Shown here: in pieces, positions 17,195 through 38,679 of the stretch | Layout of the letters: every line of letters begins with the position of its first letter | How positions within the stretch are numbered: the first letter of the stretch is position 1 | Assembly: GCA_964608515.1 (NCBI GenBank) | Contig: CAZSNS010000004.1 | Coordinates: 1,600-65,599 of the forward strand | Origin: Candidatus Hadarchaeota archaeon | Lineage (GTDB): Archaea; Hadarchaeota; Hadarchaeia; Hadarchaeales; JAGGTB01 | Direction of reading: 5' to 3' | Length of the DNA: 64,000 bases | The notes under the pieces: generated by a model | The model's database searches: none | The model's input: the letters and a program-made list of their open reading frames with translations, nothing else | Told to the model about the DNA's origin: nothing | Program-made: the position numbers and the translations under genes

Positions 17195-17286
17195 GGGGCG
17201 GTAGTCTAGCTAGGTTTCGGACACCAGCTTCGGGACCAACAAGGCGAAAAAGCTGGAGATCCGGGGTTCGAATCCCCGCCGCCCCA
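17195..17286 (+). tRNA. tRNA-Pro (anticodon CGG) with a 16-nt intron at canonical position 37/38
   Basis: Hand-folded cloverleaf: acceptor GGGGCGG/CCGCCCC, D-stem GTCT/GGAC, anticodon stem CCAGC/GCTGG, loop TTCGGG[intron 17235-17250]A, T-arm CGGGG-TTCGAAT-CCCCG, discriminator A. No encoded CCA. Confidence 0.7.
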
Positions 17287-17301
17287 TCGCACCAAAGGTT
17301 C
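17275..17301 (+). repeat. direct repeat DR1 (3' end of tRNA-Pro plus 15 bp trailer); putative attL
   Basis: CCCGCCGCCCCATCGCACCAAAGGTTC. Repeated at 36903-36929 (26/27 identical) and partly at 37825-37846. Confidence 0.8.
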
Positions 17302-17396
17302 GAATCTTTCCCAATTTTTAGTGAAGGAAAAGGGTCAAGGGGGTTTCAACCTTAAGGACTGTTACAAATCGATTGGAAAAGCCGAATAGTCTCGGA

Positions 17397-17431: not shown

Positions 17432-17743
17432 TTACTGAGTTTCAACACCAGCGTTTATCATTTCGTTCCATTTTTCTATAACCTCTTGACCATTCTCAGT
17501 TATGGAGAGGACATCACTGTCTTTTCTCCCTATTTCTGGTTCGTCCTTTGCTTCTATAAGATTCATGTCAATTAGTTTTTCTATCCTATCGTAGAGGGTT
17601 TCGTAAGATCCTCCTATTTTTTTCTGTATTTCGGATAATATTCTCTTTTCCTTCTTAACGAATCGAAGAATTTCCACTGTTTTTGAGTTTCGGAGTAGTT
17701 CTTCTAATTTCCGCCTTTTTCTATCTGCAAGTTTTCTACTCAT
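17432..17743 (-). CDS. small winged-helix DNA-binding regulator
   Basis: 103 aa. wHTH-like core (VEILRFVKKEKRILSEIQKKIGGSYETLYDRIEKLIDMNLIE). It is divergent from the ImmA-like gene. Confidence 0.4.
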   Translation of the reverse strand: MSRKLADRKRRKLEELLRNSKTVEILRFVKKEKRILSEIQKKIGGSYETLYDRIEKLIDMNLIEAKDEPEIGRKDSDVLSITENGQEVIEKWNEMINAGVETQ

Positions 17744-17928: not shown

Positions 17929-18849
17929 ATGAAGGCTAAAGAATCTCTATATGATGAATTTGAATGCCTTAGAGTTGGCGAGGGTTTTTCAGAGAAGGAG
18001 GCATTTAGGGAAATTTTAAATCGAGAAGTTAGAAGTAAGTTTACAGATTTAATGAAGGAAATAGAAGACGAGAGGATGTCGCCACCATTTGATTTAAAAA
18101 AAGTGGCTGAAGATTTAGTTTCTCAAGATATAGGAGAAAAAATAGAAGTAATTGAGGAGGATCTTGCTAGAGCCGGTTATGTACGGGAAGATTTTGACAA
18201 TGACGATGGTAAAATAATACATATTGATAAGGATGCTCCGACTTATAGAAAGAATTTTACTTTGGCTCATGAAATTGGACATATATATGGACACCTTATT
18301 ATGAAAAGAAATAAGATAGTCGAATTACGCAAAAATTTAGAAGAAGAATTTTTGGATAATATTGTCGAAAATGTTATGGATGATTTTGCTGGAAGCTTGT
18401 TAATGCCGAAAGGATATATAGAAGATATTGAAGATGAGATAAATAACAATTTGAACTACGATACTCTTATGGATATTTCTAAAAAGTTTAGTGTAAGCAA
18501 GCAGTCTCTAATTATAAGGTTAAATGAATTGGATATACTGGAACATCCTAATATCATTATTCTATTTAAGAATACTTTTTATTTTGACAAAAGGAAACCA
18601 GAAAAGATGAATAGAGATAGGGCTTGGCGTGTTTATTGTCGATCTACCCCTTCCGGATTATTTATCCCAGTCAACGCAAAGGCGGCATCTCTGGGTTTTG
18701 ATGTTGATTATTGGGAAGAGATAAATAGAAGTAATTTTGCCATGCAGGATTTGATAAAAATTGATGGTAATGAAATTGAATTAATCTATAAAGCAAGAAG
18801 GAACAAAAAGTATAGAACTTTACTTAGTTTTGGGAAGATAAGGAAATGA
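17929..18849 (+). CDS. ImmA/IrrE-like HExxH zinc metallopeptidase domain protein
   Basis: 306 aa. LAHEIGHIYGHL (HEIGH). Paired divergently with a small HTH regulator, as in ImmR/ImmA modules of mobile elements. Confidence 0.4.
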   Translation: MKAKESLYDEFECLRVGEGFSEKEAFREILNREVRSKFTDLMKEIEDERMSPPFDLKKVAEDLVSQDIGEKIEVIEEDLARAGYVREDFDNDDGKIIHIDKDAPTYRKNFTLAHEIGHIYGHLIMKRNKIVELRKNLEEEFLDNIVENVMDDFAGSLLMPKGYIEDIEDEINNNLNYDTLMDISKKFSVSKQSLIIRLNELDILEHPNIIILFKNTFYFDKRKPEKMNRDRAWRVYCRSTPSGLFIPVNAKAASLGFDVDYWEEINRSNFAMQDLIKIDGNEIELIYKARRNKKYRTLLSFGKIRK

Positions 18850-18864
18850 ATAACATTTCTTGCT

Positions 18865-21273
18865 TTAGGAATACTCTTCTTCTATTTTTTCCACGATTCT
18901 TTCTTGGATTTTGTCCATTATCTCTACTTTTTTTTCACTTTCCCCTCTTTCACCTATCACATCTACAGTTTCTTTACAAGCCTTTATTATAATATCGGGA
19001 TTTACATCCTCTCTAAATTTCTCAACAGCGGCCGTATTTGCACCACGCTTATCAGGTTCTGAATAGTGTGAAATTTCTGTTGTCCATATATCATCAAAAA
19101 GTTCAAAAAAATCCTCTTTAGAACTAGGTAATTCCTCTCTTGAATATTTATGAATCTCTTCTTCTATTTTTTTGAATATTTCCTCAGTGAGGAGATATTC
19201 TTCTACCTTTCTACTTTTATTCTTTCTCCACTCTTCAAGATAGTTTTCTTTAAGTTTTTCAGTGGGTTTATAATCCATATGGGTTACTACTTTTTCGTTC
19301 TCAATTAAATCTTCTTTCGGTTGATTTAATTCCTCTGCCAAATATTCTAAAAAATTAGTTACAATCTTGCTGACAATAATTTCGTTTTTAGCGTCATCCG
19401 GATGGATGAACAAGAAAAAATTCCATAAGCGTTCATATCTTTCTTCGGATAGCAACTCAATTTCTTTCTGTATGTCTAAGCCTTCACTCCTATTTGTCAG
19501 AGGCTCTAATCTAACTTCGTCATGTTTTTCTTGAATGAATGTTCCTATCTCTTTAGCTTGAGGGTGTCTTTCAGGACAATACACAAAGGTATCCCTTTCC
19601 ACCTTACATTCACTTTCGATTTTTTCTAATTCTTCAGGGGTTGCGTGATAAGTGTCTATAAAATCATTAAGATTACTAGCAAGGTCATTAAAAAGAGTAA
19701 ATGGAATTATTGCTCCTACTTTGTTAAGTTTTCTTTCTTTAAACCTAGTCAGTAATTCATTATCAGCCCTACTTTTTATGTAATGAATCAGTTCGCTATC
19801 AGTAAGATTAAGAATAGACTTTTCTTCACCCTCATAAGGATTAGAGTCCTTAGGTTTTCTCCCTCTTAATAATTTGAGTAACATAGTACTTGCTGCTGCT
19901 TTTGTTTTATGGTAGTATACCCTTTCAGCTAAAGTATGCCTAGTATCCATTATATTGAGTATTTCTGTTATTATATCTCCTTTTTCTGCTCCCCTTTTAC
20001 CATAAATAGATAAACCTAAACGGAGGGGAGAAGTCGTGTCGTATTCAACCATAGAGTTATCTTCTCCTATGATGAAATATCTGAATATTCTCTCGTCATA
20101 CCCTTTCGATTTTATACCGCAGTTTCGTAAGTCCCGTCGAATGTAGTCTAACATATCAGCACAGATAGTATTTCCGACAATATCTGCCATAAAAGGGTGG
20201 AAGATATCTCTTTCAGAAAATTTCTCTAAACTTTTTGAAAGTTTTTCGAATATTTCTTCTACTCTAGGTTGGGATTCACCGTTTTTTACTTCAGATCTAA
20301 TGTTTTCAAGTTTGTCTTCAAAGCTTTCAATTTTACCTGTATGTTTAATTTCATGTTTGAATTTGAGAATAAGGAAGAGCAAGTCTCTAAGATCTTTATT
20401 AGAGATTGGTGATATCCATCTTCCATCATTTTCTTCGGGAAGCCAATCATCCTTCGGATTAACAAGGATTTTTCTAATTTCGCTATTTTCGTCAAAAAGT
20501 AAATACCATAATCTGGGACTTTTTATTTCATCATGCCCTTGAAATTCATCGAACTCATCTTCTAAGGTGTGTCCAAAAGGAATATGGGTTATATCGTGAA
20601 GAAGTGCGGCTATTGAGACAATTTTCTTTATTGATTTCATTTTATTGGAAAATTCTTTGTATGAATCCCTAGTATCTGGATTGGAGTAGTATTTTGAACT
20701 TCCGTTCAAATAAACGTTTAGTTTTCCATCTTCTTTTCTAATATTGTGATGGTATCCCTTATTTTTGTCGTTTAATCTCCACAATCGGTTTTCTTCTACA
20801 ACCTCAACGGTAAAGTTCTCAGAAAGAGTAAGACCGTTTCTCTCGTACTTTTCTTTAAGTGTCGTCGTTTCGGTTTCATTTAAGCTTTCCACTAGATCAC
20901 CTATATTTTCTTCTATAGTAAACAGATACTCATCCAAGAAAATATCAGAAATTTTTGAATTGAATGGTTCGAGATCCAACCTCTTATGGTTTTTCGGTAT
21001 GTTATTACATATTTTTTTAGCTAAATGATATACACCAATTGAATGCTGAAACCTTGTATGTTTGGCTCCTCGGTAAACGAGGTCGGCGAGGTTTAATTGT
21101 TTGAGTCCATCTAATCTTTCAAATTCTTTAGTATCAATTAATTTTTCCGCCAGGCCAGAAAATTCTATGTCTCCCCAGATATTATCTTTATAAATCATTC
21201 TATTCGCACCAGCCATCCCCCTAGAGGAGGGTGATGAGATTTTATGAGTTCGTTTAAATAAAAAACTTACCAT
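18865..21273 (-). CDS. dGTPase/SAMHD1-like HD-domain dNTP triphosphohydrolase with ~300-aa charged C-terminal extension
   Basis: 802 aa. FQHSIGVYHLA (H), AALLHDITHIPFGH (HD), and the DMLDYIRRD motif typical of the Dgt/SAMHD1 family. The conserved N-terminal block (NIWGDIEFSGLAEKLIDTKEFERLDGLKQL) suggests the true start is at ATG 21216 or 21198. Confidence 0.55.
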   Translation of the reverse strand: MVSFLFKRTHKISSPSSRGMAGANRMIYKDNIWGDIEFSGLAEKLIDTKEFERLDGLKQLNLADLVYRGAKHTRFQHSIGVYHLAKKICNNIPKNHKRLDLEPFNSKISDIFLDEYLFTIEENIGDLVESLNETETTTLKEKYERNGLTLSENFTVEVVEENRLWRLNDKNKGYHHNIRKEDGKLNVYLNGSSKYYSNPDTRDSYKEFSNKMKSIKKIVSIAALLHDITHIPFGHTLEDEFDEFQGHDEIKSPRLWYLLFDENSEIRKILVNPKDDWLPEENDGRWISPISNKDLRDLLFLILKFKHEIKHTGKIESFEDKLENIRSEVKNGESQPRVEEIFEKLSKSLEKFSERDIFHPFMADIVGNTICADMLDYIRRDLRNCGIKSKGYDERIFRYFIIGEDNSMVEYDTTSPLRLGLSIYGKRGAEKGDIITEILNIMDTRHTLAERVYYHKTKAAASTMLLKLLRGRKPKDSNPYEGEEKSILNLTDSELIHYIKSRADNELLTRFKERKLNKVGAIIPFTLFNDLASNLNDFIDTYHATPEELEKIESECKVERDTFVYCPERHPQAKEIGTFIQEKHDEVRLEPLTNRSEGLDIQKEIELLSEERYERLWNFFLFIHPDDAKNEIIVSKIVTNFLEYLAEELNQPKEDLIENEKVVTHMDYKPTEKLKENYLEEWRKNKSRKVEEYLLTEEIFKKIEEEIHKYSREELPSSKEDFFELFDDIWTTEISHYSEPDKRGANTAAVEKFREDVNPDIIIKACKETVDVIGERGESEKKVEIMDKIQERIVEKIEEEYS

Positions 21274-21442
21274 TTTAGTTTTAGTTTTGATTTTAATCTT
21301 CGTATTTTCTCTTGATTACTGAAGGGGTTAGATATCTATCAATTATGGAAAAATAAGATAGGAAGGACTTCTTCAGTTGCATGTCGTATTTTTATATTCC
21401 CCAATTTTATTAGTACTGTCCAGTTCTAGAATAAGATGGAAA

Positions 21443-21556
21443 ATGATATGTCCTCATTGCGACATTGAAATGAAATTAGTTGAATCGGAGGGGAATACAG
21501 AGGATAACAAGTGCCCCAAATGTGGTTTTCAAAAAACAGTAATAAGAGACAAGTAG
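21443..21556 (+). CDS. small 4-Cys zinc-ribbon protein (37 aa), below the ORF-track cutoff
   Basis: Hand translation: MICPHCDIEMKLVESEGNTEDNKCPKCGFQKTVIRDK. Two CPxC knuckles. Confidence 0.3.
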   Translation: MICPHCDIEMKLVESEGNTEDNKCPKCGFQKTVIRDK

Positions 21557-21626: not shown

Positions 21627-21968
21627 TTAGGACTCTACTTCTTCTTTATAACGATCATTTACCTGTTTTTGAAAATAAAGGACAAGGCCGATACAAGCAA
21701 ATATTATGGCAAATTGGATTATCAAGACTGCACATAATTTATAAGAGATTATCAGTAAAGAGCCCCTTGCTTCTAGAATCCAACTACCTACACCTATAAT
21801 TATCATTATGGCAATTAATGGTGAAACTGGAATCCAGATACTTACATATTTACGGCGATTATCGAGAGCATTCTTGTAGCGGTCGTTTTCGTGCCTATCG
21901 TAATTGTCCATAAGGGAGTGCTGTGAGGCAGCCCAAGACTGAGCTCTACTAAACACAAAGCCAGCCAA
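21627..21968 (-). CDS. small integral membrane protein (2-3 TM)
   Basis: 113 aa. Hydrophobic segments PVSPLIAIMIIIGVGSWIL and LCAVLIIQFAIIFACIGLVLYF. Confidence 0.4.
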   Translation of the reverse strand: MAGFVFSRAQSWAASQHSLMDNYDRHENDRYKNALDNRRKYVSIWIPVSPLIAIMIIIGVGSWILEARGSLLIISYKLCAVLIIQFAIIFACIGLVLYFQKQVNDRYKEEVES

Positions 21969-22011
21969 GATTCCTAAAGCCGTTAATGTTAAAGGTAGGA
22001 CTTCTATATTG

Positions 22012-22620
22012 TCACTCTCCTTGGTTCTCGATTTCTTCTTCTATCCAATCCAGAAGATTTTTAGCATGAGTTTTAGCTTCCACTTTGAACTTTTTTTTAT
22101 GCCCACTATGGCTCACAGTTTTGGGCTTAATCGCCCCCTCAACACTTTCATATTCTCCCTCATGTTTGTCAAAGATCTCTCTGAGTAAATCCCATAATTC
22201 AGATTCTAGTAAGATATAGTGGTCTTCAACTTCCTCTCCGAATTTTTTAACAAGTTTCTCAAATTTTTTCTTTAAATCCTTAAACATATTACCTTTTAAA
22301 TTACTATATCTGTTAGGTTCTTCAGTTTTCAAAGCTCTAATTAAATAAGTCGCCTGTCCGTCAGTTATGTTAAACTTATTGGTTAACACATCTCTTTCTG
22401 GCTTCCATCCAAATTCTTCACATAAGGGCCATATTATTCTGGCCATAAGCTCCGAGGTACTTGAGGGGCGAGGCTTTTCTGCTGTAATCCACTCAAAAAA
22501 GAACCGTTCCCCCTCCTCTTTCACAGTATCTCTTATAACTTCATCTTCTTCCTCGTCCCCAATCTGAAACTGATTCTTTAAATCTACAAATAGTTCATCA
22601 ATTGATTTCCTATCAGGCAC
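22012..22620 (-). CDS. hypothetical protein
   Basis: 202 aa, charged, no recognisable motif. It lies between the HD gene and the membrane gene on the same strand. Confidence 0.35.
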   Translation of the reverse strand: MPDRKSIDELFVDLKNQFQIGDEEEDEVIRDTVKEEGERFFFEWITAEKPRPSSTSELMARIIWPLCEEFGWKPERDVLTNKFNITDGQATYLIRALKTEEPNRYSNLKGNMFKDLKKKFEKLVKKFGEEVEDHYILLESELWDLLREIFDKHEGEYESVEGAIKPKTVSHSGHKKKFKVEAKTHAKNLLDWIEEEIENQGE

Positions 22621-22857
22621 CTTATTCTCCCCCCACTTCCCAAAGCAAGATAAGTCTGTCTTATTTAAAGTTTTTATGAGTTATTACTGTTTTCCGATGG
22701 TTCTAGTGCCTCGGCGACCTCACCACTTAATATTTAGCCAAGCGTGGTTTCACTTTGTGGAGTTTATCTCCGGTCCCTTTCTCCCTTTGAACCCCTGAAT
22801 AGAGGGCTACTTCGTGGACGATATCGTCTTGGGGAGTAGGAGGAATGCAATGTTTTC

Positions 22858-23664
22858 TTAGCTATCTCTTCTCTCTTCAAAATAGTCTTGAGCTTTCACT
22901 TCAATAGAGAAAGGTTCAATATTTTCACAATCCTCTAAGACAGAGTTCACTTTTTCAATTTCTTCTCTAAGTTCTTCTATTTGTTTCCCCGAAACTTCTT
23001 CCTCATGAACTATCACTAAGATTTTTCCCCCTTCTCTCACTAAAACAGATTCTATATTCATGTGGCCCTTCCATATTTCCTCATCTAGTTCTTCTTGAAG
23101 AATATCATAAACTACTTCTGGTGCTCTACGATTATCAATGTCACATGAATCAGCTATACGGAATAAAGTAGCTAACAATTGGACTTTTATCTCATCTCCG
23201 CAACTGTGAGTACGTTCTGGAATATCATCTAATTCTTCTTCTGAACGATGTCTTTTAACCACTGTCTTAAGACCACTTTCAACAGGATTATCTAAATCAA
23301 ACAAGTAGTTTTGTCTCTTTAATGTATCCCACATTTCACAAGATTTTTCGGCATGACTTTCTCTATCCTCCAAGTTCCCAATATCATGGATCCAAGCTGA
23401 AGCATATAAAATAAAAATTTCTTTTTCATTCAATTCCCCCCCTGACTCTTGATAAATATCAATAACATCATTGAGGTATCCAATAATTCTCTTAGAATGC
23501 TCATAACCGTGATCTGTAAATTTGGGAATTTCTCGCGGTATATATCTCAAAATATAAGTAATTGCCTTTTTTATCACATACAGTTTATGTTCGTATGCAG
23601 TGCTTCCATTTCCCTGATTAGCTAGTTTTTTGTATTTTTGATTATTGTTCCCCATCAACAACAA
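22858..23664 (-). CDS. HD-domain metal-dependent phosphohydrolase/nuclease-like protein
   Basis: 268 aa. H (DHGYEHSKRI), HD (AWIHDIGN), H (HAEKS), H (RHRSEE) and D (RIADSCD) in HD-superfamily order. Confidence 0.5.
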   Translation of the reverse strand: MLLMGNNNQKYKKLANQGNGSTAYEHKLYVIKKAITYILRYIPREIPKFTDHGYEHSKRIIGYLNDVIDIYQESGGELNEKEIFILYASAWIHDIGNLEDRESHAEKSCEMWDTLKRQNYLFDLDNPVESGLKTVVKRHRSEEELDDIPERTHSCGDEIKVQLLATLFRIADSCDIDNRRAPEVVYDILQEELDEEIWKGHMNIESVLVREGGKILVIVHEEEVSGKQIEELREEIEKVNSVLEDCENIEPFSIEVKAQDYFEERRDS

Positions 23665-23866
23665 TTATTGAAATTTGGATAATTAAGCTTTTAACATTGA
23701 ATTTTTAAATAACGAGTTAATTATTCAATATTGAGTTGAAATTTTGAGATGGAAAAAGACTTATAAGATGGATATTATATATCTATTTTGGTAAAAAAAA
23801 TGAAAAGATTTATAAAAAATGAACCTCCTGGTGAGGAAGAGTTTGCAGTGAAGAAAATTACCTGAG

Positions 23867-24157
23867 GTGTTTATATTGGAAGAGATACTATCCGAGGAAT
23901 TGAAGGTGGCATTAAAAGTATTCGAGTACGACAAGAAAAAAAATGAGCCTATTTATCTTAATAAACTCGATGAAGTTATCAATGATGTCAGTAAGAACAA
24001 AATAAGTAGCTCGGTTGACGAACTGTTTGACTTAGGGATAATAAATGCGAAGTGGGAGAAATCAGGGGGTAATTGGGCTAGAGTACTCACTATCAGTGGA
24101 GAAGCTGAGGACTTTTTAGAGGATCTCGACGAGCGAGTAAAGGAATTAGAGGAATAA
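23867..24157 (+). CDS. hypothetical protein (GTG start per track)
   Basis: 96 aa ORF with no motif. Confidence 0.25.
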   Translation: MFILEEILSEELKVALKVFEYDKKKNEPIYLNKLDEVINDVSKNKISSSVDELFDLGIINAKWEKSGGNWARVLTISGEAEDFLEDLDERVKELEE

Positions 24158-24341: not shown

Positions 24342-25457
24342 ATGGGTTTAGACGATTTAGAGAAGTATAAAGAGGAAGGAGAGACCTTTGGCTTAAAAGA
24401 CATAATAGATGAAAAAGAGACTTTTGATTTAAAAGAGGAATTTGAGGAGTTTATTGGAGATCATATCAAAGAACTATCTGAAAAAGATAATATTATTGCA
24501 CTAAAGAGAAAAGGGAATGTTTTTTTTGAGCATTTGAGGGAAAAATTTCCATCTTTAAAAACCCTTGGACATCTTTCACAAAATCATATCCATGTAAAAA
24601 AGGAAGAATTAGACAATTCTAAGATAATAATATTCGATGATTCAATTGATGAGGGAAATAATTTTGGAAATATCATGAAAGTATTTGAGAAACTAAATAT
24701 AAATCCGAAAGAAGTTTTAGTTCTAAATGTAATAGTGAATGAAAATGCAATCGAAAAAATAAAAGAAAAATATCAAGATGGTGACCTAAAATTTTTATAC
24801 CTCGAATCAGTTTCAGATGAGGAATACGGTAAGCTGTATCCTAAATGCATGTTTGGATATATAGATTATATAAATGAATCCTTAAACAAAGATTTTTCAA
24901 TTATTACCTTAGAATTGGATAAGAGAATTAACATTGAAGAGCTTAAAGAATGCTTTAATGAAAAATTTGATATAATGGATTTAGAACATAAATTAGATTT
25001 GGAGAGTTTAGAAAGAAATAAAGAACATATAGTCTCGAAGATTTCTTTGGACGCTGAAAAGTTTTTTAATAATAAAAGGGAAAGTTTCCCAGAAATAGAA
25101 AATATGAAGCAAACGAAAGTAAGAATTTTCTTAAGAGATAGAGAAACTAACAGCTCTATTGATATTATACCAATTTTAATCCCAGAAAATCCTCCTGTAA
25201 TGGAGTGTAAAGATAAAGAGATATGTAAACTTGATGAATTTAAGAAAAAACATCTAGAAAACTCAGAGCCTGATGAAGAATGCTTGGAAAGATACTGTAT
25301 AAAGTGTTTACAAGAAAACCTATCTAAAGATTTCGATAATAAATTTCAAAGCTATTTAATAAAAAAATTGAAAAAAAAGGGTATTCAAATAATGAGAAGC
25401 AAGACTGAATATCCAATAATTCCTGATTATTTCCCCCTTCTTGAATTTCCAACCTAA
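24342..25457 (+). CDS. PRTase-like (phosphoribosyltransferase type I fold) domain protein with Cys-rich C-terminal extension
   Basis: NIIALKRKGNVFFEHL followed by KIIIFDDSIDEGNNFGNIMKVFEKL...VLVLNVIV resembles the PRPP-binding loop (hhhhDDhhxTGxT) of type I PRTases. C-terminus has CKDKEICKLD...CLERYCIKC. Confidence 0.35.
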   Translation: MGLDDLEKYKEEGETFGLKDIIDEKETFDLKEEFEEFIGDHIKELSEKDNIIALKRKGNVFFEHLREKFPSLKTLGHLSQNHIHVKKEELDNSKIIIFDDSIDEGNNFGNIMKVFEKLNINPKEVLVLNVIVNENAIEKIKEKYQDGDLKFLYLESVSDEEYGKLYPKCMFGYIDYINESLNKDFSIITLELDKRINIEELKECFNEKFDIMDLEHKLDLESLERNKEHIVSKISLDAEKFFNNKRESFPEIENMKQTKVRIFLRDRETNSSIDIIPILIPENPPVMECKDKEICKLDEFKKKHLENSEPDEECLERYCIKCLQENLSKDFDNKFQSYLIKKLKKKGIQIMRSKTEYPIIPDYFPLLEFPT

Positions 25458-31609: not shown

Positions 31610-32803
31610 TTACAGTTTATTCAAAAGTGTATCGTAAATATCATCAATTGTGGCTTCTAGACCCCAAGCGAAGTTTGCAACTCTTCTGAAAATATCTGAA
31701 GTTATTCGAAATCTATTAGGTCTTCTAAAATTATGATTTAGGTTCTTTTCCCCCTCTACTTTTTCCCTAATCGACTCTAACTTCTCTGCATTTTCCGGTT
31801 TTCCTTCGGTTGGTTTTAATTCATCCATAACTCTTCCAGGAATCATGTTTGAGAAGGATATCCGGAAAATGTAGTCCCAATTTGACCTACCCATTGTGTC
31901 CTGATAAACTTCATTTAATACATTCATTAGTTTCTCTCTATTTTTTGTCAGTATATTAAGCAGTGCGTCTAATCCTCTCTGGTCAAGAAAATCTAGAGAT
32001 CTCTTAAGGAAAAATAATAAATCATCATGACTCAATGAATCCAGTTTATTACTTTGTTCGTAAATCAGCTGTAGCATTCTCGCTCCCTTGGAGAGAGTTA
32101 CAGCCCTATCTTTCATTTTCCAAACTAATGGTAGGAGTTCCTTTACTTCATTTTTGGTTATTTCTTCGTATTCTCCGTCAGAGTCGATTACACCATTATA
32201 TAATTTAGTTCTAATATTCCTTACCGATTCTCTAAAAGGAGAATTACCCACATAGAGGTTATAGATGAGATTGGATCTTTTAAACTCCCTTTCTAAGTCT
32301 TTTGTAGTCCAGAGCTCTACCTCGGGTTTTTCATCAGCTGTTTCTAAAAATGATTGGGTGGCACCCTTTGTATATAAATAGATTTTTCTATCAGCATCTT
32401 GTTGATGGAGTAATTCAAGTTGTGATATATCTTTTTGCATTGGCTTTCTTTTCACTCCGATCAGAATAGTTTCTGAATTATTATCACATTCGAGATCTAC
32501 GCCTTTTTCGTGTGATGGGTCGTTTTCGTGCCGCCATCTTACTTTATATCCTAGGCACTCAAAGTGTATTTTTAAGAGTGCGTGAATCTCTTTTTCCTGA
32601 AAATCGGTCCAAGGGATTTTTGTCTCTTCCCACTCTCTTAGCTCAGGCGGCAGAGATTCTTCCGAGTCCTCATCAAAATTTTCATTCATTTTTATAGGTC
32701 TATCTTCATTTGAGTAGGCTAATGATTTAACTGTAACTAAATAGATGAATAGAATAACTAAGATTTTTTTGATAAGAAAGAGAATTAAAAAACGAAATGT
32801 CAT
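31610..32803 (-). CDS. N-terminally membrane-anchored hypothetical protein with possible restriction-endonuclease-like core
   Basis: 397 aa. N-terminal TM helix. HFECLGYKVRW...KGVDLECDN...ETILIGVKRK resembles Mrr/NERD-like PD-(D/E)xK cores (weak). Confidence 0.3.
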   Translation of the reverse strand: MTFRFLILFLIKKILVILFIYLVTVKSLAYSNEDRPIKMNENFDEDSEESLPPELREWEETKIPWTDFQEKEIHALLKIHFECLGYKVRWRHENDPSHEKGVDLECDNNSETILIGVKRKPMQKDISQLELLHQQDADRKIYLYTKGATQSFLETADEKPEVELWTTKDLEREFKRSNLIYNLYVGNSPFRESVRNIRTKLYNGVIDSDGEYEEITKNEVKELLPLVWKMKDRAVTLSKGARMLQLIYEQSNKLDSLSHDDLLFFLKRSLDFLDQRGLDALLNILTKNREKLMNVLNEVYQDTMGRSNWDYIFRISFSNMIPGRVMDELKPTEGKPENAEKLESIREKVEGEKNLNHNFRRPNRFRITSDIFRRVANFAWGLEATIDDIYDTLLNKL

Positions 32804-33872: not shown

Positions 33873-34802
33873 TTGACTCCTTCTCGTTACAGTAAACAAG
33901 CAAGAAGCAAAGTTCTTAAGGAGGAATTTAATTATCTAGAATCGATGGATATACAATTAAAAGATTCAGAATTAATTACTGATACTGTTAGAAATGTTAA
34001 TGAAGATATTGGGAATATAGTATCTAACGCAGCGTGGGTACTTGATGGGGCTACTAGTCTTTCTGATAAAAATATAACTCCACTAAAAACAGAAGCAAAA
34101 TGGTATGTTGAAAAACTCAATCATTATTTTGAAAATCACATGATGGATAACTCAAGTAAAGAACTTTCTTCAATAGTTAAAGAGTCAATTAAGAAGACAC
34201 GATTAGAGTTCTTTGATTTTTTAGACAAAGAGATAGATGAAGTAGATGAACCAGCTGCTAGTTGTGCCATGGTTAGGTGGGAGAATAATATATTAGAGTA
34301 TTTCGTTCTATGTGACTGCACATTTGTTCTTTTTAGAAACGGAAAGGTGGTAAAAAAAATAACAGATGACAGAATCGACAAGTTCGAAGAAGAGATTAGA
34401 AAAAAAATTAAGCATTTGATTGAAGATAGGAGAATGTCTCTCACGAATGCTCGTAGAAAAGTTTTCCCAATAATCAAAAAAGTTCGGCGTTTAAGAAACG
34501 AGGCAGGGAATTATTGGGTTCTCAGTTTTGACCCAAAAGCTGTAGAAAAAGCAATTCATGATAAGATCGAACTAAAGAAGGGCGATGAAGTCTATCTTTT
34601 TACCGATGGATTTGGTCGTATAGTAGATAAATACTCAGAGTTTGAGGACTGGCAAGAGGCAATTGAATATATAAATAGCCAAGGAGGAGAAAAAGTTTTT
34701 TCTTTGCTTCGAAGAATAGAAAAAAATGATGTGGAAGGAGAAAAATACATTCGAACGAGGGCATCCGATGATGCCACCCTTTCTATTCTAAAGTTTGGTT
34801 AA
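33873..34802 (+). CDS. possible PP2C/SpoIIE-like (PPM-family) phosphatase-like protein
   Basis: 309 aa. WVLDGATS (DGxxG-like), YLFTDGFGR (DGxWD-like), ASDDATL (terminal DN/DD block). Their order matches PPM motifs but the match is weak. Confidence 0.3.
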   Translation: MTPSRYSKQARSKVLKEEFNYLESMDIQLKDSELITDTVRNVNEDIGNIVSNAAWVLDGATSLSDKNITPLKTEAKWYVEKLNHYFENHMMDNSSKELSSIVKESIKKTRLEFFDFLDKEIDEVDEPAASCAMVRWENNILEYFVLCDCTFVLFRNGKVVKKITDDRIDKFEEEIRKKIKHLIEDRRMSLTNARRKVFPIIKKVRRLRNEAGNYWVLSFDPKAVEKAIHDKIELKKGDEVYLFTDGFGRIVDKYSEFEDWQEAIEYINSQGGEKVFSLLRRIEKNDVEGEKYIRTRASDDATLSILKFG

Positions 34803-34845: not shown

Positions 34846-35949
34846 ATGGGATTTAATGAAGATTTAGTTTTTGAAGAGGAGATTGAGAATCTAGAAATGA
34901 GTGACTCTGTAAATCATGAGGATATTGTTGATTTCCTTCAAAATTTGCCCGAACCAAGAAATATAGAATTTCAAGTAAATATAGCCAACTTAGTACAGAG
35001 AGTGTCTGAATCATCATTTTATCTTGAGAAAATATTAGAAGATGGCTTATCGAAAGATATTCGATTCAAGGCTTTTTATGCTCTTCAAACCTATTACAGA
35101 AGAAATAAGGATTTAAGTGACTTAGAAGAACTTTACAAAAATTATAGTCACATTTTTTCCGACCGAACCATGTACAAAGTCCTCCATTCCGTTCTTCTGC
35201 GTCTAAGAAATAAACCGGAGTCTATTTTCCAAGCAATTGAAGAACAGAGCGTTGTTTTAAACGAAATAAGTGATAATCCCGGTATATATCAAGCAAAAGC
35301 AAATACAATCGTACAAGCAATTGAAGATGGTATTATTTCCGATGATAGGCGGGATCAATATCTTAACGATGCAAAAAAAGCTATCAGAAATGCAATTAGT
35401 ATATGGCCGGATTACGGTAAGTATCATGTGACTCATGGACGGATTTTGAAATTAGAAGGAAAATATGAGGCTGCTCGTGAAGAAATTGAAAAGGGCATAG
35501 ACCTTGAAGAAGCTAATAAGGAAGATTATGCTATTAGAATTGCTAGTTTCCAACAGCACCTTTTAAAAGTTGATTTTGAGGAATACCATAATGAATTAGA
35601 AAAGCAAATTGATAGGGAAGAAAAAAGGGTTGAGAGTTTAAGTAAAGATTTGGATGATGCCTTGCAGGGTTTTCGAAAATCCAATCTACAATTTTTGGGC
35701 TTTTTCGCTGCTATTTTGGGTGGCGTGATAATAACAATGCAAGTAGCTACAAACTATCCAGCAATACAAGCTGGTCCTCTAATTCTAATAATATTTGGAG
35801 GGCTATCTACTTCTTTTGGCTTGTTTAGTTTGATTGTTCCGAGAAAAGAAGAAACAAATCTCGGTCTAAAAATAGTTGGTGTAGGAATACTAATACTATT
35901 ATTCGGATTCATTATTTTGTGGATTCATTATTTTTTTCTCAGTATATAA
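34846..35949 (+). CDS. TPR-like repeat protein with C-terminal polytopic membrane anchor
   Basis: 367 aa. Helical repeat region with W/Y-rich turns, then 3-4 TM helices. Confidence 0.35.
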   Translation: MGFNEDLVFEEEIENLEMSDSVNHEDIVDFLQNLPEPRNIEFQVNIANLVQRVSESSFYLEKILEDGLSKDIRFKAFYALQTYYRRNKDLSDLEELYKNYSHIFSDRTMYKVLHSVLLRLRNKPESIFQAIEEQSVVLNEISDNPGIYQAKANTIVQAIEDGIISDDRRDQYLNDAKKAIRNAISIWPDYGKYHVTHGRILKLEGKYEAAREEIEKGIDLEEANKEDYAIRIASFQQHLLKVDFEEYHNELEKQIDREEKRVESLSKDLDDALQGFRKSNLQFLGFFAAILGGVIITMQVATNYPAIQAGPLILIIFGGLSTSFGLFSLIVPRKEETNLGLKIVGVGILILLFGFIILWIHYFFLSI

Positions 35950-36902: not shown

Positions 36903-36929
36903 CCCGCCGCCCCATCGCACAAAAGGTTC
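36903..36929 (+). repeat. direct repeat DR2 (copy of tRNA-Pro 3' end plus trailer); putative attR
   Basis: CCCGCCGCCCCATCGCACAAAAGGTTC versus DR1: 26/27 identical. There is no tRNA body upstream. Confidence 0.8.
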
Positions 36930-37078
36930 TAAACTTGTGTGAAGAGAAAAACCCATTTACCACTTTTTTCGATTTTACTTCTTAAGATACAAAGCTAAAG
37001 GGATTGGAAACAGTATATCTTGAGAACCTGGTTCAACCTTATTCTCATCAAAAAATTGCTTAAACAAAAGAATGTTTT

Positions 37079-37824: not shown

Positions 37825-37846
37825 CCACCCCATCGCACCAAAGGTT
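37825..37846 (+). repeat. direct repeat DR3 (partial third copy of tRNA-Pro 3' end/trailer)
   Basis: CCACCCCATCGCACCAAAGGTT. 19 bp are identical to 17282-17300, including the CACC found in DR1 but not DR2. Confidence 0.75.
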
Positions 37847-38679
37847 TGAGGAATTTCCAATTTTTCAATGTTTGAAAAAGAACAGTTAATGTGACCTGTT
37901 GAAAAGGTATAGCTAGGGTCGGTAAGAATATTTTTGGGGATTATACCCATTTCAATCCTAGGTCTGTCGATGATGGGTGAGTTCTGCTTCTGGCTTTTGA
38001 AGGTGTTTTCTTTTCCGGCTTCTCATTTACTAAATCTCGGTGATCTTCGCACCACCACATGCCGTGCATAAGAAACGCAGCTTCTTTGCCACATATACAA
38101 CACTTTGCCAAACTCAGCACCTCGGTCCAGCCGTCCTTTCACTACAGTTGGAGGGTATTAAAAATCTTCGGCTTTATAAATTAAGACTCCAAATTTTTAT
38201 CTTCAATTCGACTATTAGGCTCCTAAAAACGAGATTATAAACATTCAAGGAAAATTTGGAATTATTTTAATTCTAATAATTCATTTCGCTACAACATTTC
38301 AACATGATTGCTAAGATAAAACATCGAACTTACTGCGAGTTATTTCTCTTCTTCCCCAAAAACCCGAATCAAATTACAAGAACAATTTAATTCCGACATA
38401 CCACTTTATCAATCTCGAAAAACCACTTCTAAGGATTTTAATAACCATTCAAATCTCGATTTATCATTACCAAATTCTGAAAGCTCTCACTTTCAAAAGA
38501 AGATAGAAAGACAAAGCAAAACCTTTCTAAAACAAAAATTAGAAAGAGACGAGAAAAAATTGTTAGAACAACAAAACAAAAGTATTCAAACCCGAAAAAT
38601 ACCTTCCTTATACCTAAATACTAAAATTCCTCCCAAAATAAATTCCAGAAAAAAGACCAAACACAAAGAGGAAAACAAT

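Follow-up and report, generated by a model that had tools for sequence, protein, structure and literature searches.

Genes at the Locus

We analyzed a 64,000-nucleotide stretch of a Candidatus Hadarchaeota genome (GenBank assembly GCA_964608515.1, contig CAZSNS010000004.1, positions 1,600 to 65,599 of the forward strand), hereafter the window, and focused on a gene for an HD-domain protein and the genes on its two sides. The chromosomal genes of the window, such as Orc1/Cdc6, a tRNA synthetase, and NAD kinase, are those of an archaeal chromosome. An initial annotation had singled out three minus-strand open reading frames (ORFs) as one unit in the style of abortive infection, consisting of an HD phosphohydrolase-like protein, a 202-amino acid (aa) protein, and a small membrane protein with two to three transmembrane (TM) segments. 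ORF calling confirmed the three at 22858–23664, 22012–22620, and 21627–21968, respectively. On the other side of the HD gene, two plus-strand genes encode a 96-aa protein resembling a winged helix-turn-helix (wHTH) domain and a 371-aa protein resembling a phosphoribosyltransferase (PRTase). The comparisons below associate the HD gene with this second pair of neighbors (Table 1).

The label of HD phosphohydrolase proved correct. The protein matches the Pfam family HD-CE (PF24391) over residues 47–222, scoring 88.2 bits where the cut-off is 27 (E = 9.3e-25), and the same family is precomputed on P0002 and P0003. Across 13 homologs, residues H49, G50, H53, H90, D91, H101, H136, D169, and C171 do not vary; the metal center of the HD domain is intact, with extra histidines, and a nucleotide-degrading activity is predicted. 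The protein consists of an all-helical HD domain and a small C-terminal α/β region, with β-β-α-β predicted for the last ~65 residues in a low-confidence model. The AlphaFold2 (AF2) model, built from a two-sequence alignment, has a mean predicted local distance difference test (pLDDT) score of 43, too low for comparisons of fold or active site.

No housekeeping family in NCBIfam matched the HD protein, which agrees with the initial annotation in giving the gene no housekeeping identity. The 268-aa protein matched no dGTPase model in NCBIfam or PADLOC, the weak dGTPase matches of the region belonging to an adjacent 802-aa protein. We considered the MptB-type housekeeping HD phosphodiesterase of methanogens and rejected it on the sporadic distribution of the gene and the absence of an NCBIfam match. 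Distant HD-CE domains form the N-terminus of proteins with nSTAND3/NACHT NTPase and tetratricopeptide repeat (TPR) regions (L025, L029, and L033), and on Clostridium botulinum plasmids HD-CE is paired with a TPR gene. In STAND immune receptors, this N-terminal position is where the effector resides.

A Conserved Three-Gene Cassette

GTDB genomes and JGI metagenomes were searched for homologous loci by pattern-seeded scans with HD-CE alignments, which gave ~40 loci, and we scanned the six-frame ORFs of all loci with hidden Markov models (HMMs) of the three protein families. Loci were regarded as assessable if they held a close stand-alone HD-CE gene with enough flank. The wHTH gene adjoins HD-CE in 14 of 14 assessable loci, and the PRTase-like gene adjoins wHTH in 10 of 12 (the window and nine others), L009 and L010 having the two-gene core only. 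All three proteins are also kept in Methanoregula genomes and metagenome contigs. The orientation of the genes varies by lineage while their adjacency is retained and the wHTH gene is always central. In the window, the HD gene (−) diverges from the wHTH (+) and PRTase-like (+) genes; in the closest locus, L001, the order is PRTase-like (+), wHTH (−), and, divergent from the latter, HD (+); in Methanoregula, the PRTase-like gene (−) diverges from wHTH (+) and HD-CE (+), and wHTH lies 9–21 bp upstream of HD-CE.

L001 belongs to a Methanobacteriota metagenome-assembled genome and encodes P0003, the only close HD homolog in the word-indexed search. Its HD protein is 40% identical to that of the window, its small protein (93 aa) 57%, and its PRTase-like protein 35%. 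Downstream of its HD gene lies a convergent purC, and neither a 202-aa nor a TM gene is present there. The word-indexed searches, run with the 202-aa, HD, and wHTH proteins, returned self matches and this one HD homolog and missed the 57%-identical wHTH of the same locus. For the cassette proteins, sequence and profile searches of the PDB gave weak generic HD, PRTase, and wHTH matches only, and no cassette or triad protein had a match in PHROGs.

The three genes of the initial annotation did not behave as a unit in the same comparison. The ~40 loci encoding HD-CE relatives contained no relative of the 202-aa or TM protein (0 of ~40 loci), nor of the 802-aa and M78 proteins encoded beyond them in the window, and the co-conservation on which the annotation itself had staked the grouping is thus absent.

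The GC content of the cassette is ~10–18 percentage points below that of the upstream flank in 10 of 10 foreign loci and below both flanks in most of them, being near that of the downstream flank in L004, L005, and L011. The insertion sites differ: L001 has the cassette within a purine-biosynthesis cluster, between the purQ/creatininase-family and purC genes, whereas in L004–L006 it adjoins HsdS/HsdM of a type I restriction–modification system, and PIN, Fic, and RhuM genes are found near cassette loci. The low GC in comparison with the flanks and the differing insertion sites point to a horizontally mobile accessory element.

Several loci contain further ORFs next to the cassette. Downstream of the PRTase-like gene, the Methanoregula loci have two recurrent families, one of ~165 aa (MADF...ETWADTVPALA; L005 2988–3767, L006 5001–5504, and L014 1798–2349) and one of ~190 aa ending in GWR[YF]Y (L005 3691–4260 and L014 3144–3737), which could reflect shared synteny or a larger mobile element. 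In L014 (6717–8085), and in no other locus, the HD-CE stop is overlapped by two extra co-directional ORFs of 261 and 200 aa that lack Pfam matches; Fic/DOC follows them.

Table 1. Features of the window discussed in the text (positions are those of the window)
Feature	Positions	Strand	Details and basis
HD-CE family HD phosphohydrolase	22858–23655	−	265 aa from ATG 23655 (public call); ORF reaches TTG 23664 (268 aa)
Divergent promoter region, HD-CE/wHTH	23656–23866		Sequence inspection and inverted-repeat search
Winged-helix-like protein	23867–24157	+	96 aa, GTG start; 57% identity to L001 neighbor; invariant neighbor of stand-alone HD-CE genes
PRTase-like protein	24342–25457	+	371 aa, four-Cys C-terminus; 35% identity to L001 neighbor; family alignment
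Noncoding spacer, HD-CE stop to 202-aa start	22621–22857	−	237 bp, 44% GC, noncoding in all frames
202-aa ORFan	22012–22620	−	GTG start; acidic/basic, predicted helical; coding potential; outside conserved cassette
113-aa ORFan	21627–21968	−	TTG start; two clear hydrophobic segments; 43 bp downstream of 202-aa gene; T-rich tract after
tRNA gene	17195–17286	+	Rfam tRNA, 52 bits; left border of island
tRNA and att-like 3′ end	17195–17319	+	Direct-repeat family D1 and alignment
Direct repeat of tRNA 3′ end, CCCGCCGCCCCATCGCAC[A/C]AAAGGTTC	36907–36947	+	Repeat search, alignment, and GC profile; right border of island
Further copy of tRNA-3′-end repeat	37825–37865		Repeat search and alignment

The wHTH Protein, Its Promoter Region, and the PRTase-Like Protein

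The wHTH protein is the best conserved component of the cassette, with a mean pairwise identity of 0.66 compared with 0.46 for HD-CE and 0.33 for the PRTase-like protein. Members of the family have weak matches to winged-helix models, most often to TBPIP wHTH (9 of 14 members) and also to PadR and Lrs14. The Pfam family wHTH-PRTase_assc (PF24409) is matched by one of the 14 members, at E = 0.046 and below threshold.

In the intergenic region shared by the HD-CE and wHTH genes, a TATA-like TTTAAAAA is located on the minus strand ~50 nt upstream of the HD-CE ATG, and TTTATAAA (23809–23816) ~50 nt upstream of the wHTH GTG. The region also contains an inverted repeat with TTGAAT/ATTCAA half-sites (23693–23732), and a similar TTGAAT-type palindrome is present in the equivalent region of L001; we regard the repeat as a weak operator candidate. 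Rfam searches found no RNA family in this promoter region or in the 237-bp spacer downstream of the HD gene. A scan for sigma-70 promoters and terminators gave matches at chance level, the model not being applicable to archaea.

A solo wHTH homolog, 47% identical to the copy in L009, is encoded among large virion-like ORFs on two IMG/VR contigs (L044 4989–5288 and L045), and neither HD-CE nor PRTase genes lie within 5 kb of it. Judged from this setting, the viral protein is compatible with an antidote or decoy, or with a viral regulator, and is only a lead.

The PRTase-like protein carries a motif resembling the pyrophosphate (PPi) loop, ERKG, and a putative phosphoribosyl pyrophosphate (PRPP) loop, IIIFDDSIDEG, and K57-G58, D100, G105, Y173, and R261 are invariant in the family. 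The canonical Thr residues of the PRPP loop are replaced in the window protein, and the C-terminal third holds four invariant cysteines (C289, C295, C319, and C322). Library matches are below threshold and limited to the PRPP-loop region, covering UPRTase, Pribosyltran, PRTase-CE, HGPRT, and the PADLOC models PRTase_III-A, ShosT, and PsyrT. The best PADLOC matches were to PRTase_III-A (E = 6e-5 for the window protein and 2.6e-6 for the best family member) and to ShosT (5e-3 and 6.7e-4, respectively). PRTase-CE (PF24390) was not matched by the window protein at E ≤ 0.1; two of 10 family members matched it, with a best E of 3.4e-4 that is still below threshold.

The 202-aa/113-aa Pair

The remaining two genes of the flagged triad are real ORFs and, like the HD gene, have the look of coding sequences. 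Shuffling the island 200 times never produced an ORF of at least 202 aa, but it gave 0.48 ORFs of at least 113 aa per shuffle, and the 113-aa TM ORF is therefore not significant by length alone. On a log-odds scale of codon usage, for which the confident genes of the window served as the training set, the HD and 202-aa ORFs reached +0.27 and +0.24 bits per codon in frame, compared with −0.5 to −0.65 out of frame; the TM ORF had ~0 in frame and −0.6 out of frame. The sequence of the 113-aa protein is consistent with the two to three TM segments assigned to it earlier. In its frame, a hydrophobic stretch (VLPLTLTALGI; 21969–22040) extends upstream of the TTG to the preceding stop with no ATG, GTG, or TTG in between, and the true start of the gene, or the presence of a third TM segment, is thus uncertain.

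Neither protein has recognizable relatives. The 202-aa protein had no match in Pfam, NCBIfam, PADLOC, PHROGs, or the PDB, and only itself in a search of 5.8 billion clusters; an exhaustive HMMER comparison with 1.84 billion representatives returned itself and one spurious tandem-repeat match. The latter, P0008 (E = 2.6e-14), was rejected, being a 492-aa protein of 58-aa tandem repeats in which eight weak matches are summed. The 113-aa TM protein gave sub-threshold family noise only in Pfam, PADLOC, and NCBIfam, and no relatives of either protein were found in viral contigs, plasmids, or phages. The single-sequence AF2 model of the 202-aa protein, with a mean pLDDT of 56, is too low in quality for fold comparison.

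The gaps between the three genes had been described as short, which holds for the 43 bp separating the 202-aa and TM genes but not for the 237 bp between the HD and 202-aa genes. This spacer bears a TATA-like box, TTTAAATA, ~40 bp upstream of the 202-aa GTG and then a Shine–Dalgarno-like site, GGGGGGAG, and the 202-aa/TM pair consequently has promoter-like signals of its own. The predicted RNA fold of the spacer has z = −2.0 and includes a long-range helix pairing UCCUCCUACU near the 5′ end with AGUGGGGGGA, the Shine–Dalgarno-like site of the 202-aa gene; such a helix might block access to the ribosome-binding site, though only if the transcript is a read-through product.

The 202-aa and 113-aa genes probably form a bicistronic unit, one that appears to be lineage specific and is tied to the HD enzyme by position only. 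The flagged triad thus seems to comprise two unrelated transcription units, the HD gene and the 202-aa/113-aa pair, and two of its three genes are true ORFans, beyond interpretation by homology.

Interpretation and Competing Explanations

We estimate a probability of roughly 0.6 that the HD gene is one leg of a conserved mobile cassette with the divergently transcribed wHTH and PRTase-like genes, that the cassette has a nucleotide-targeting defense or a toxin-like function, and that the 202-aa/TM pair is separate from it. By sequence, the cassette is an archaeal and divergent version of the HD-CE/PRTase/wHTH conflict systems that have been named computationally. Calcineurin-CE, HD-CE, and PRTase-CE were reportedly introduced together by Nicastro, Burroughs, Iyer, and Aravind in 2023 as predicted nucleotide-degrading immune effectors. 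To our knowledge, effectors of the HD-CE and PRTase-CE types are comparative-genomics predictions without experimental test so far. The suffix CE denotes conflict effector, and depletion of deoxynucleoside triphosphates (dNTPs) has been shown experimentally for the sister family Calcineurin-CE, acting with a HAD partner (PMC12871103). Two eLife studies and a 2026 Nature study on STAND proteins make no mention of HD or PRTase effectors.

In the mechanism that we propose, HD-CE would be a metal-dependent phosphohydrolase effector attacking nucleotides, and possibly nucleic acids. The PRTase-like protein would bind PRPP or a nucleotide and act either as a second effector, depleting PRPP or nucleotides as in retron-Eco11 and ShosT, or as a nucleotide sensor. 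The wHTH protein, encoded centrally at the bidirectional promoter or directly upstream of HD-CE, would keep the system off until infection by repression, direct binding, or both. Upon infection, HD-CE, along with the PRTase-like protein where present, would degrade nucleotides or PRPP, or HD-CE would cut nucleic acid, and replication would be arrested.

Several observations weigh against this reading. The PRTase-like and wHTH proteins are below the Pfam thresholds of PRTase-CE and wHTH-PRTase_assc, and the winged-helix assignment is built on many weak matches (E of 0.005–0.1). The loci were gathered by scans centered on HD-CE, so the counts of wHTH and PRTase-like co-occurrence are conditional on HD-CE. 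Structure predictions with pLDDT of 56 and 43 are too poor for a comparison of folds, and PADLOC gave no system-level match. The location of the L001 cassette inside a purine-biosynthesis cluster could hint at metabolism. Finally, sequence inspection found no oligo-T tract after the HD-CE stop in 22621–22857, and with no such terminator between the HD-CE and 202-aa genes they may be co-transcribed by read-through in this genome.

The last point bears on the model of the initial annotation, in which a single operon of the abortive-infection type encodes the HD, 202-aa, and membrane proteins and the last of these serves as effector or anchor. The genes are indeed co-directional, the gap between the 202-aa and TM genes is 43 bp, no obvious oligo-T terminator follows the HD gene, and the island around them is rich in defense genes; but the 202-aa and TM proteins have no homologs and are absent from every HD-CE locus scanned, the 237-bp spacer provides the pair with a TATA-like box and Shine–Dalgarno site, and the HD gene has other, strongly conserved partners, which makes such an operon highly improbable. 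Almost as hard to credit is a regulated pathway of nucleotide salvage or nucleoside-metabolite conversion, where the PRTase would make a nucleotide from PRPP, the HD protein dephosphorylate it, and the wHTH protein regulate the two. It could account for the purine-biosynthesis neighbors in L001 and for the conserved PPi-loop and PRPP-loop residues, but not for a sporadic cassette 10–18 points lower in GC than the neighboring DNA and inserted at differing sites. Moreover, NCBIfam gives no housekeeping match, the HD-CE family is otherwise joined to STAND/TPR immune architectures, and the best library matches of the PRTase-like protein are defense effectors.

The other two alternatives retain the cassette and concern its role. 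The wHTH and HD-CE genes, with or without the PRTase-like gene, might be a type II toxin–antitoxin or addiction module that stabilizes mobile elements and has no antiviral function, wHTH being the autorepressing antitoxin and HD-CE the toxin. Most loci have the small DNA-binding-type gene 9–21 bp upstream of the enzyme gene, L009 and L010 contain a two-gene core without the PRTase-like gene, the cassette has a low GC in comparison with its flanks, the window copy resides in an integrated element, and PIN and Fic modules are near. On the other hand, wHTH is the most conserved component (0.66), which is unusual for antitoxins, the window and L001 genes are divergent and not operonic, and HD-CE relatives occur in STAND/TPR sensor proteins typical of immunity; we find this explanation unlikely, with the proviso that toxin–antitoxin and abortive-infection functions are not mutually exclusive. 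We also lean away from, though with less conviction, a cassette of the same composition and defense role in which HD-CE is a DNA or RNA nuclease, similar to Cas3''/Cas10-HD or YhaM, instead of a hydrolase of free nucleotides. The pattern H..HD..H..H..D fits two-metal HD enzymes, nucleases among them. The HD protein has weak PDB and profile matches to the 3′-5′ exoribonuclease YhaM and to Cas10 HD domains, but equally weak ones to cyclic-nucleotide phosphodiesterases, an exopolyphosphatase, and a dNTP triphosphohydrolase. A PRTase-like partner suggests chemistry on nucleotides, and the HD-CE family was reportedly named as an effector that targets them. In favor of a nuclease, the characterized N-terminal effectors of STAND proteins are often nucleases (PMC10907252).

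In the light of these comparisons, the observations of the initial annotation are partly confirmed and its interpretation is partly supported, being right in flavor and wrong in composition. Its defense-style flavor is right in that the HD gene is non-housekeeping, is carried by an integrated island, and is a member of a family occupying the effector position of conflict systems; the partners, however, should have been sought on the other side of the HD gene.

A more specific and tentative version of the cassette model, which we consider possible but doubtful, is an archaeal immune cassette in which two stand-alone nucleotide-active enzymes, HD-CE and the four-Cys PRTase-like protein, are held in check by the unusually well conserved 96-aa wHTH protein and archaeal viruses carry the solo wHTH (L044 and L045) as a decoy or antidote. 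If true, no HD-CE/PRTase system for nucleotide depletion would have been defined in archaea before this one, and a viral countermeasure would be built into it. The compactness of the cassette (three genes in 2.6 kb) and the very consistent pairing of wHTH and HD-CE could make it a tractable archaeal model for how HD-CE acts, what is sensed or consumed by the non-canonical PRTase-like protein, and how both are controlled by so small a wHTH protein.

Comparison with Known Systems

The window cassette is most similar to the HD-CE/PRTase-CE systems (PF24391, PF24390, and PF24409). Its HD protein is a bona fide HD-CE encoded beside PRTase-like and small wHTH-like proteins, and relatives of HD-CE hold the effector positions of STAND/TPR proteins. 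In contrast to the named families, to which the window PRTase-like and wHTH proteins are sub-threshold relatives only, cassettes of the window type consist of three stand-alone proteins, are found in methanogenic archaea, and have a PRTase-like protein with a four-Cys C-terminal region. Antiviral STAND proteins of the Avs/NLR-like kind with an N-terminal HD-CE (L025, L029, and L033) share the effector domain family, but the window HD protein has no NTPase or repeat sensor, and its regulation must therefore come from separate proteins. On C. botulinum plasmid pCLJ (L043 5989–9041), the gene for a 470-aa HD-CE protein precedes one for a 516-aa TPR protein; the two are kept together on 15 Clostridium plasmids and resemble a STAND-like protein that has been split, with an effector from the same family.

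Two further systems are related through the PRTase-like protein. Retron type III-A (Retron-Eco11), the best PADLOC match, similarly couples a winged helix to a PRTase-like domain whose PRPP loop is degenerate. The Retron-Eco11 PRTase is a toxic effector that depletes PRPP and requires PRPP binding (PMC12746101). The window differs from this retron in having wHTH as a separate gene and in the presence of an HD-CE enzyme; no reverse transcriptase domain was found in the neighboring ORFs and no Rfam retron RNA near the PRTase-like gene. ShosTA likewise includes a PRTase-like protein, to which that of the window has a weak match, and the toxicity of ShosT needs PRPP binding (PMC12961424). Pfam and PADLOC revealed no DprA/SLOG-like ShosA partner among the neighbors, the partners in the window being wHTH and HD-CE.

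The PUA-Calcineurin-CE-HAD system, in which a conflict-effector phosphoesterase collapses the nucleotide pools together with another enzyme active on nucleotides and a small sensory or regulatory module (PMC12871103), is alike in its logic, the function of the window cassette being a prediction. It differs in having calcineurin and HAD folds in place of HD and PRTase and a PUA sensor in place of wHTH, and in being bacterial and not archaeal. The gene layout of type II toxin–antitoxin modules, with the small DNA-binding gene co-oriented and directly upstream, is seen in the Methanoregula-type loci, whereas the window and L001 genes are divergent.

The Surrounding Island

The flagged genes were correctly placed inside an island, a low-GC stretch bounded by a tRNA gene and direct repeats of the tRNA 3′ end. 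The tRNA 3′ end with its trailing bases (CCCGCCGCCCCATCGCAC.AAAGGTTC) recurs twice downstream, and as these repeats bracket the low-GC stretch, the genes lie within an integrated element of ~19.6 kb. On the evidence of its borders, the island is a tRNA-integrated element that holds both the HD-CE cassette and the 202-aa/113-aa pair. The repeats may also define a second remnant, of ~0.9 kb. None of the ORFs of 110 aa or longer was recognized as an integrase.

The island has other defense-like genes. An M78/IrrE peptidase (17929–18849, plus strand; best match CapP, 1.6e-20) and the 802-aa protein (18865–21273, minus strand), which has a dGTPase/SAMHD1-like HD motif and matches PADLOC dGTPase (9.5e-7) and phrog_35128, are encoded by convergent genes and are another candidate defense pair. 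Further defense-like candidates are an Mrr-like nuclease (31610–32803, minus strand), a PP2C phosphatase (33873–34802, plus strand), and a TPR protein (34846–35949, plus strand). Two small ORFs complete the picture. A second small winged-helix protein, PadR-like (17435–17743, minus strand; Pfam HTH_45, 8e-6), adjoins the tRNA/att site and weakly matches the profile of the cassette wHTH (E = 6e-4). Between the TM and 802-aa genes lies a convergent 59-aa ORF with a CxxC...CxxC zinc ribbon of the TiaS type (21377–21556, plus strand; E = 2e-4).

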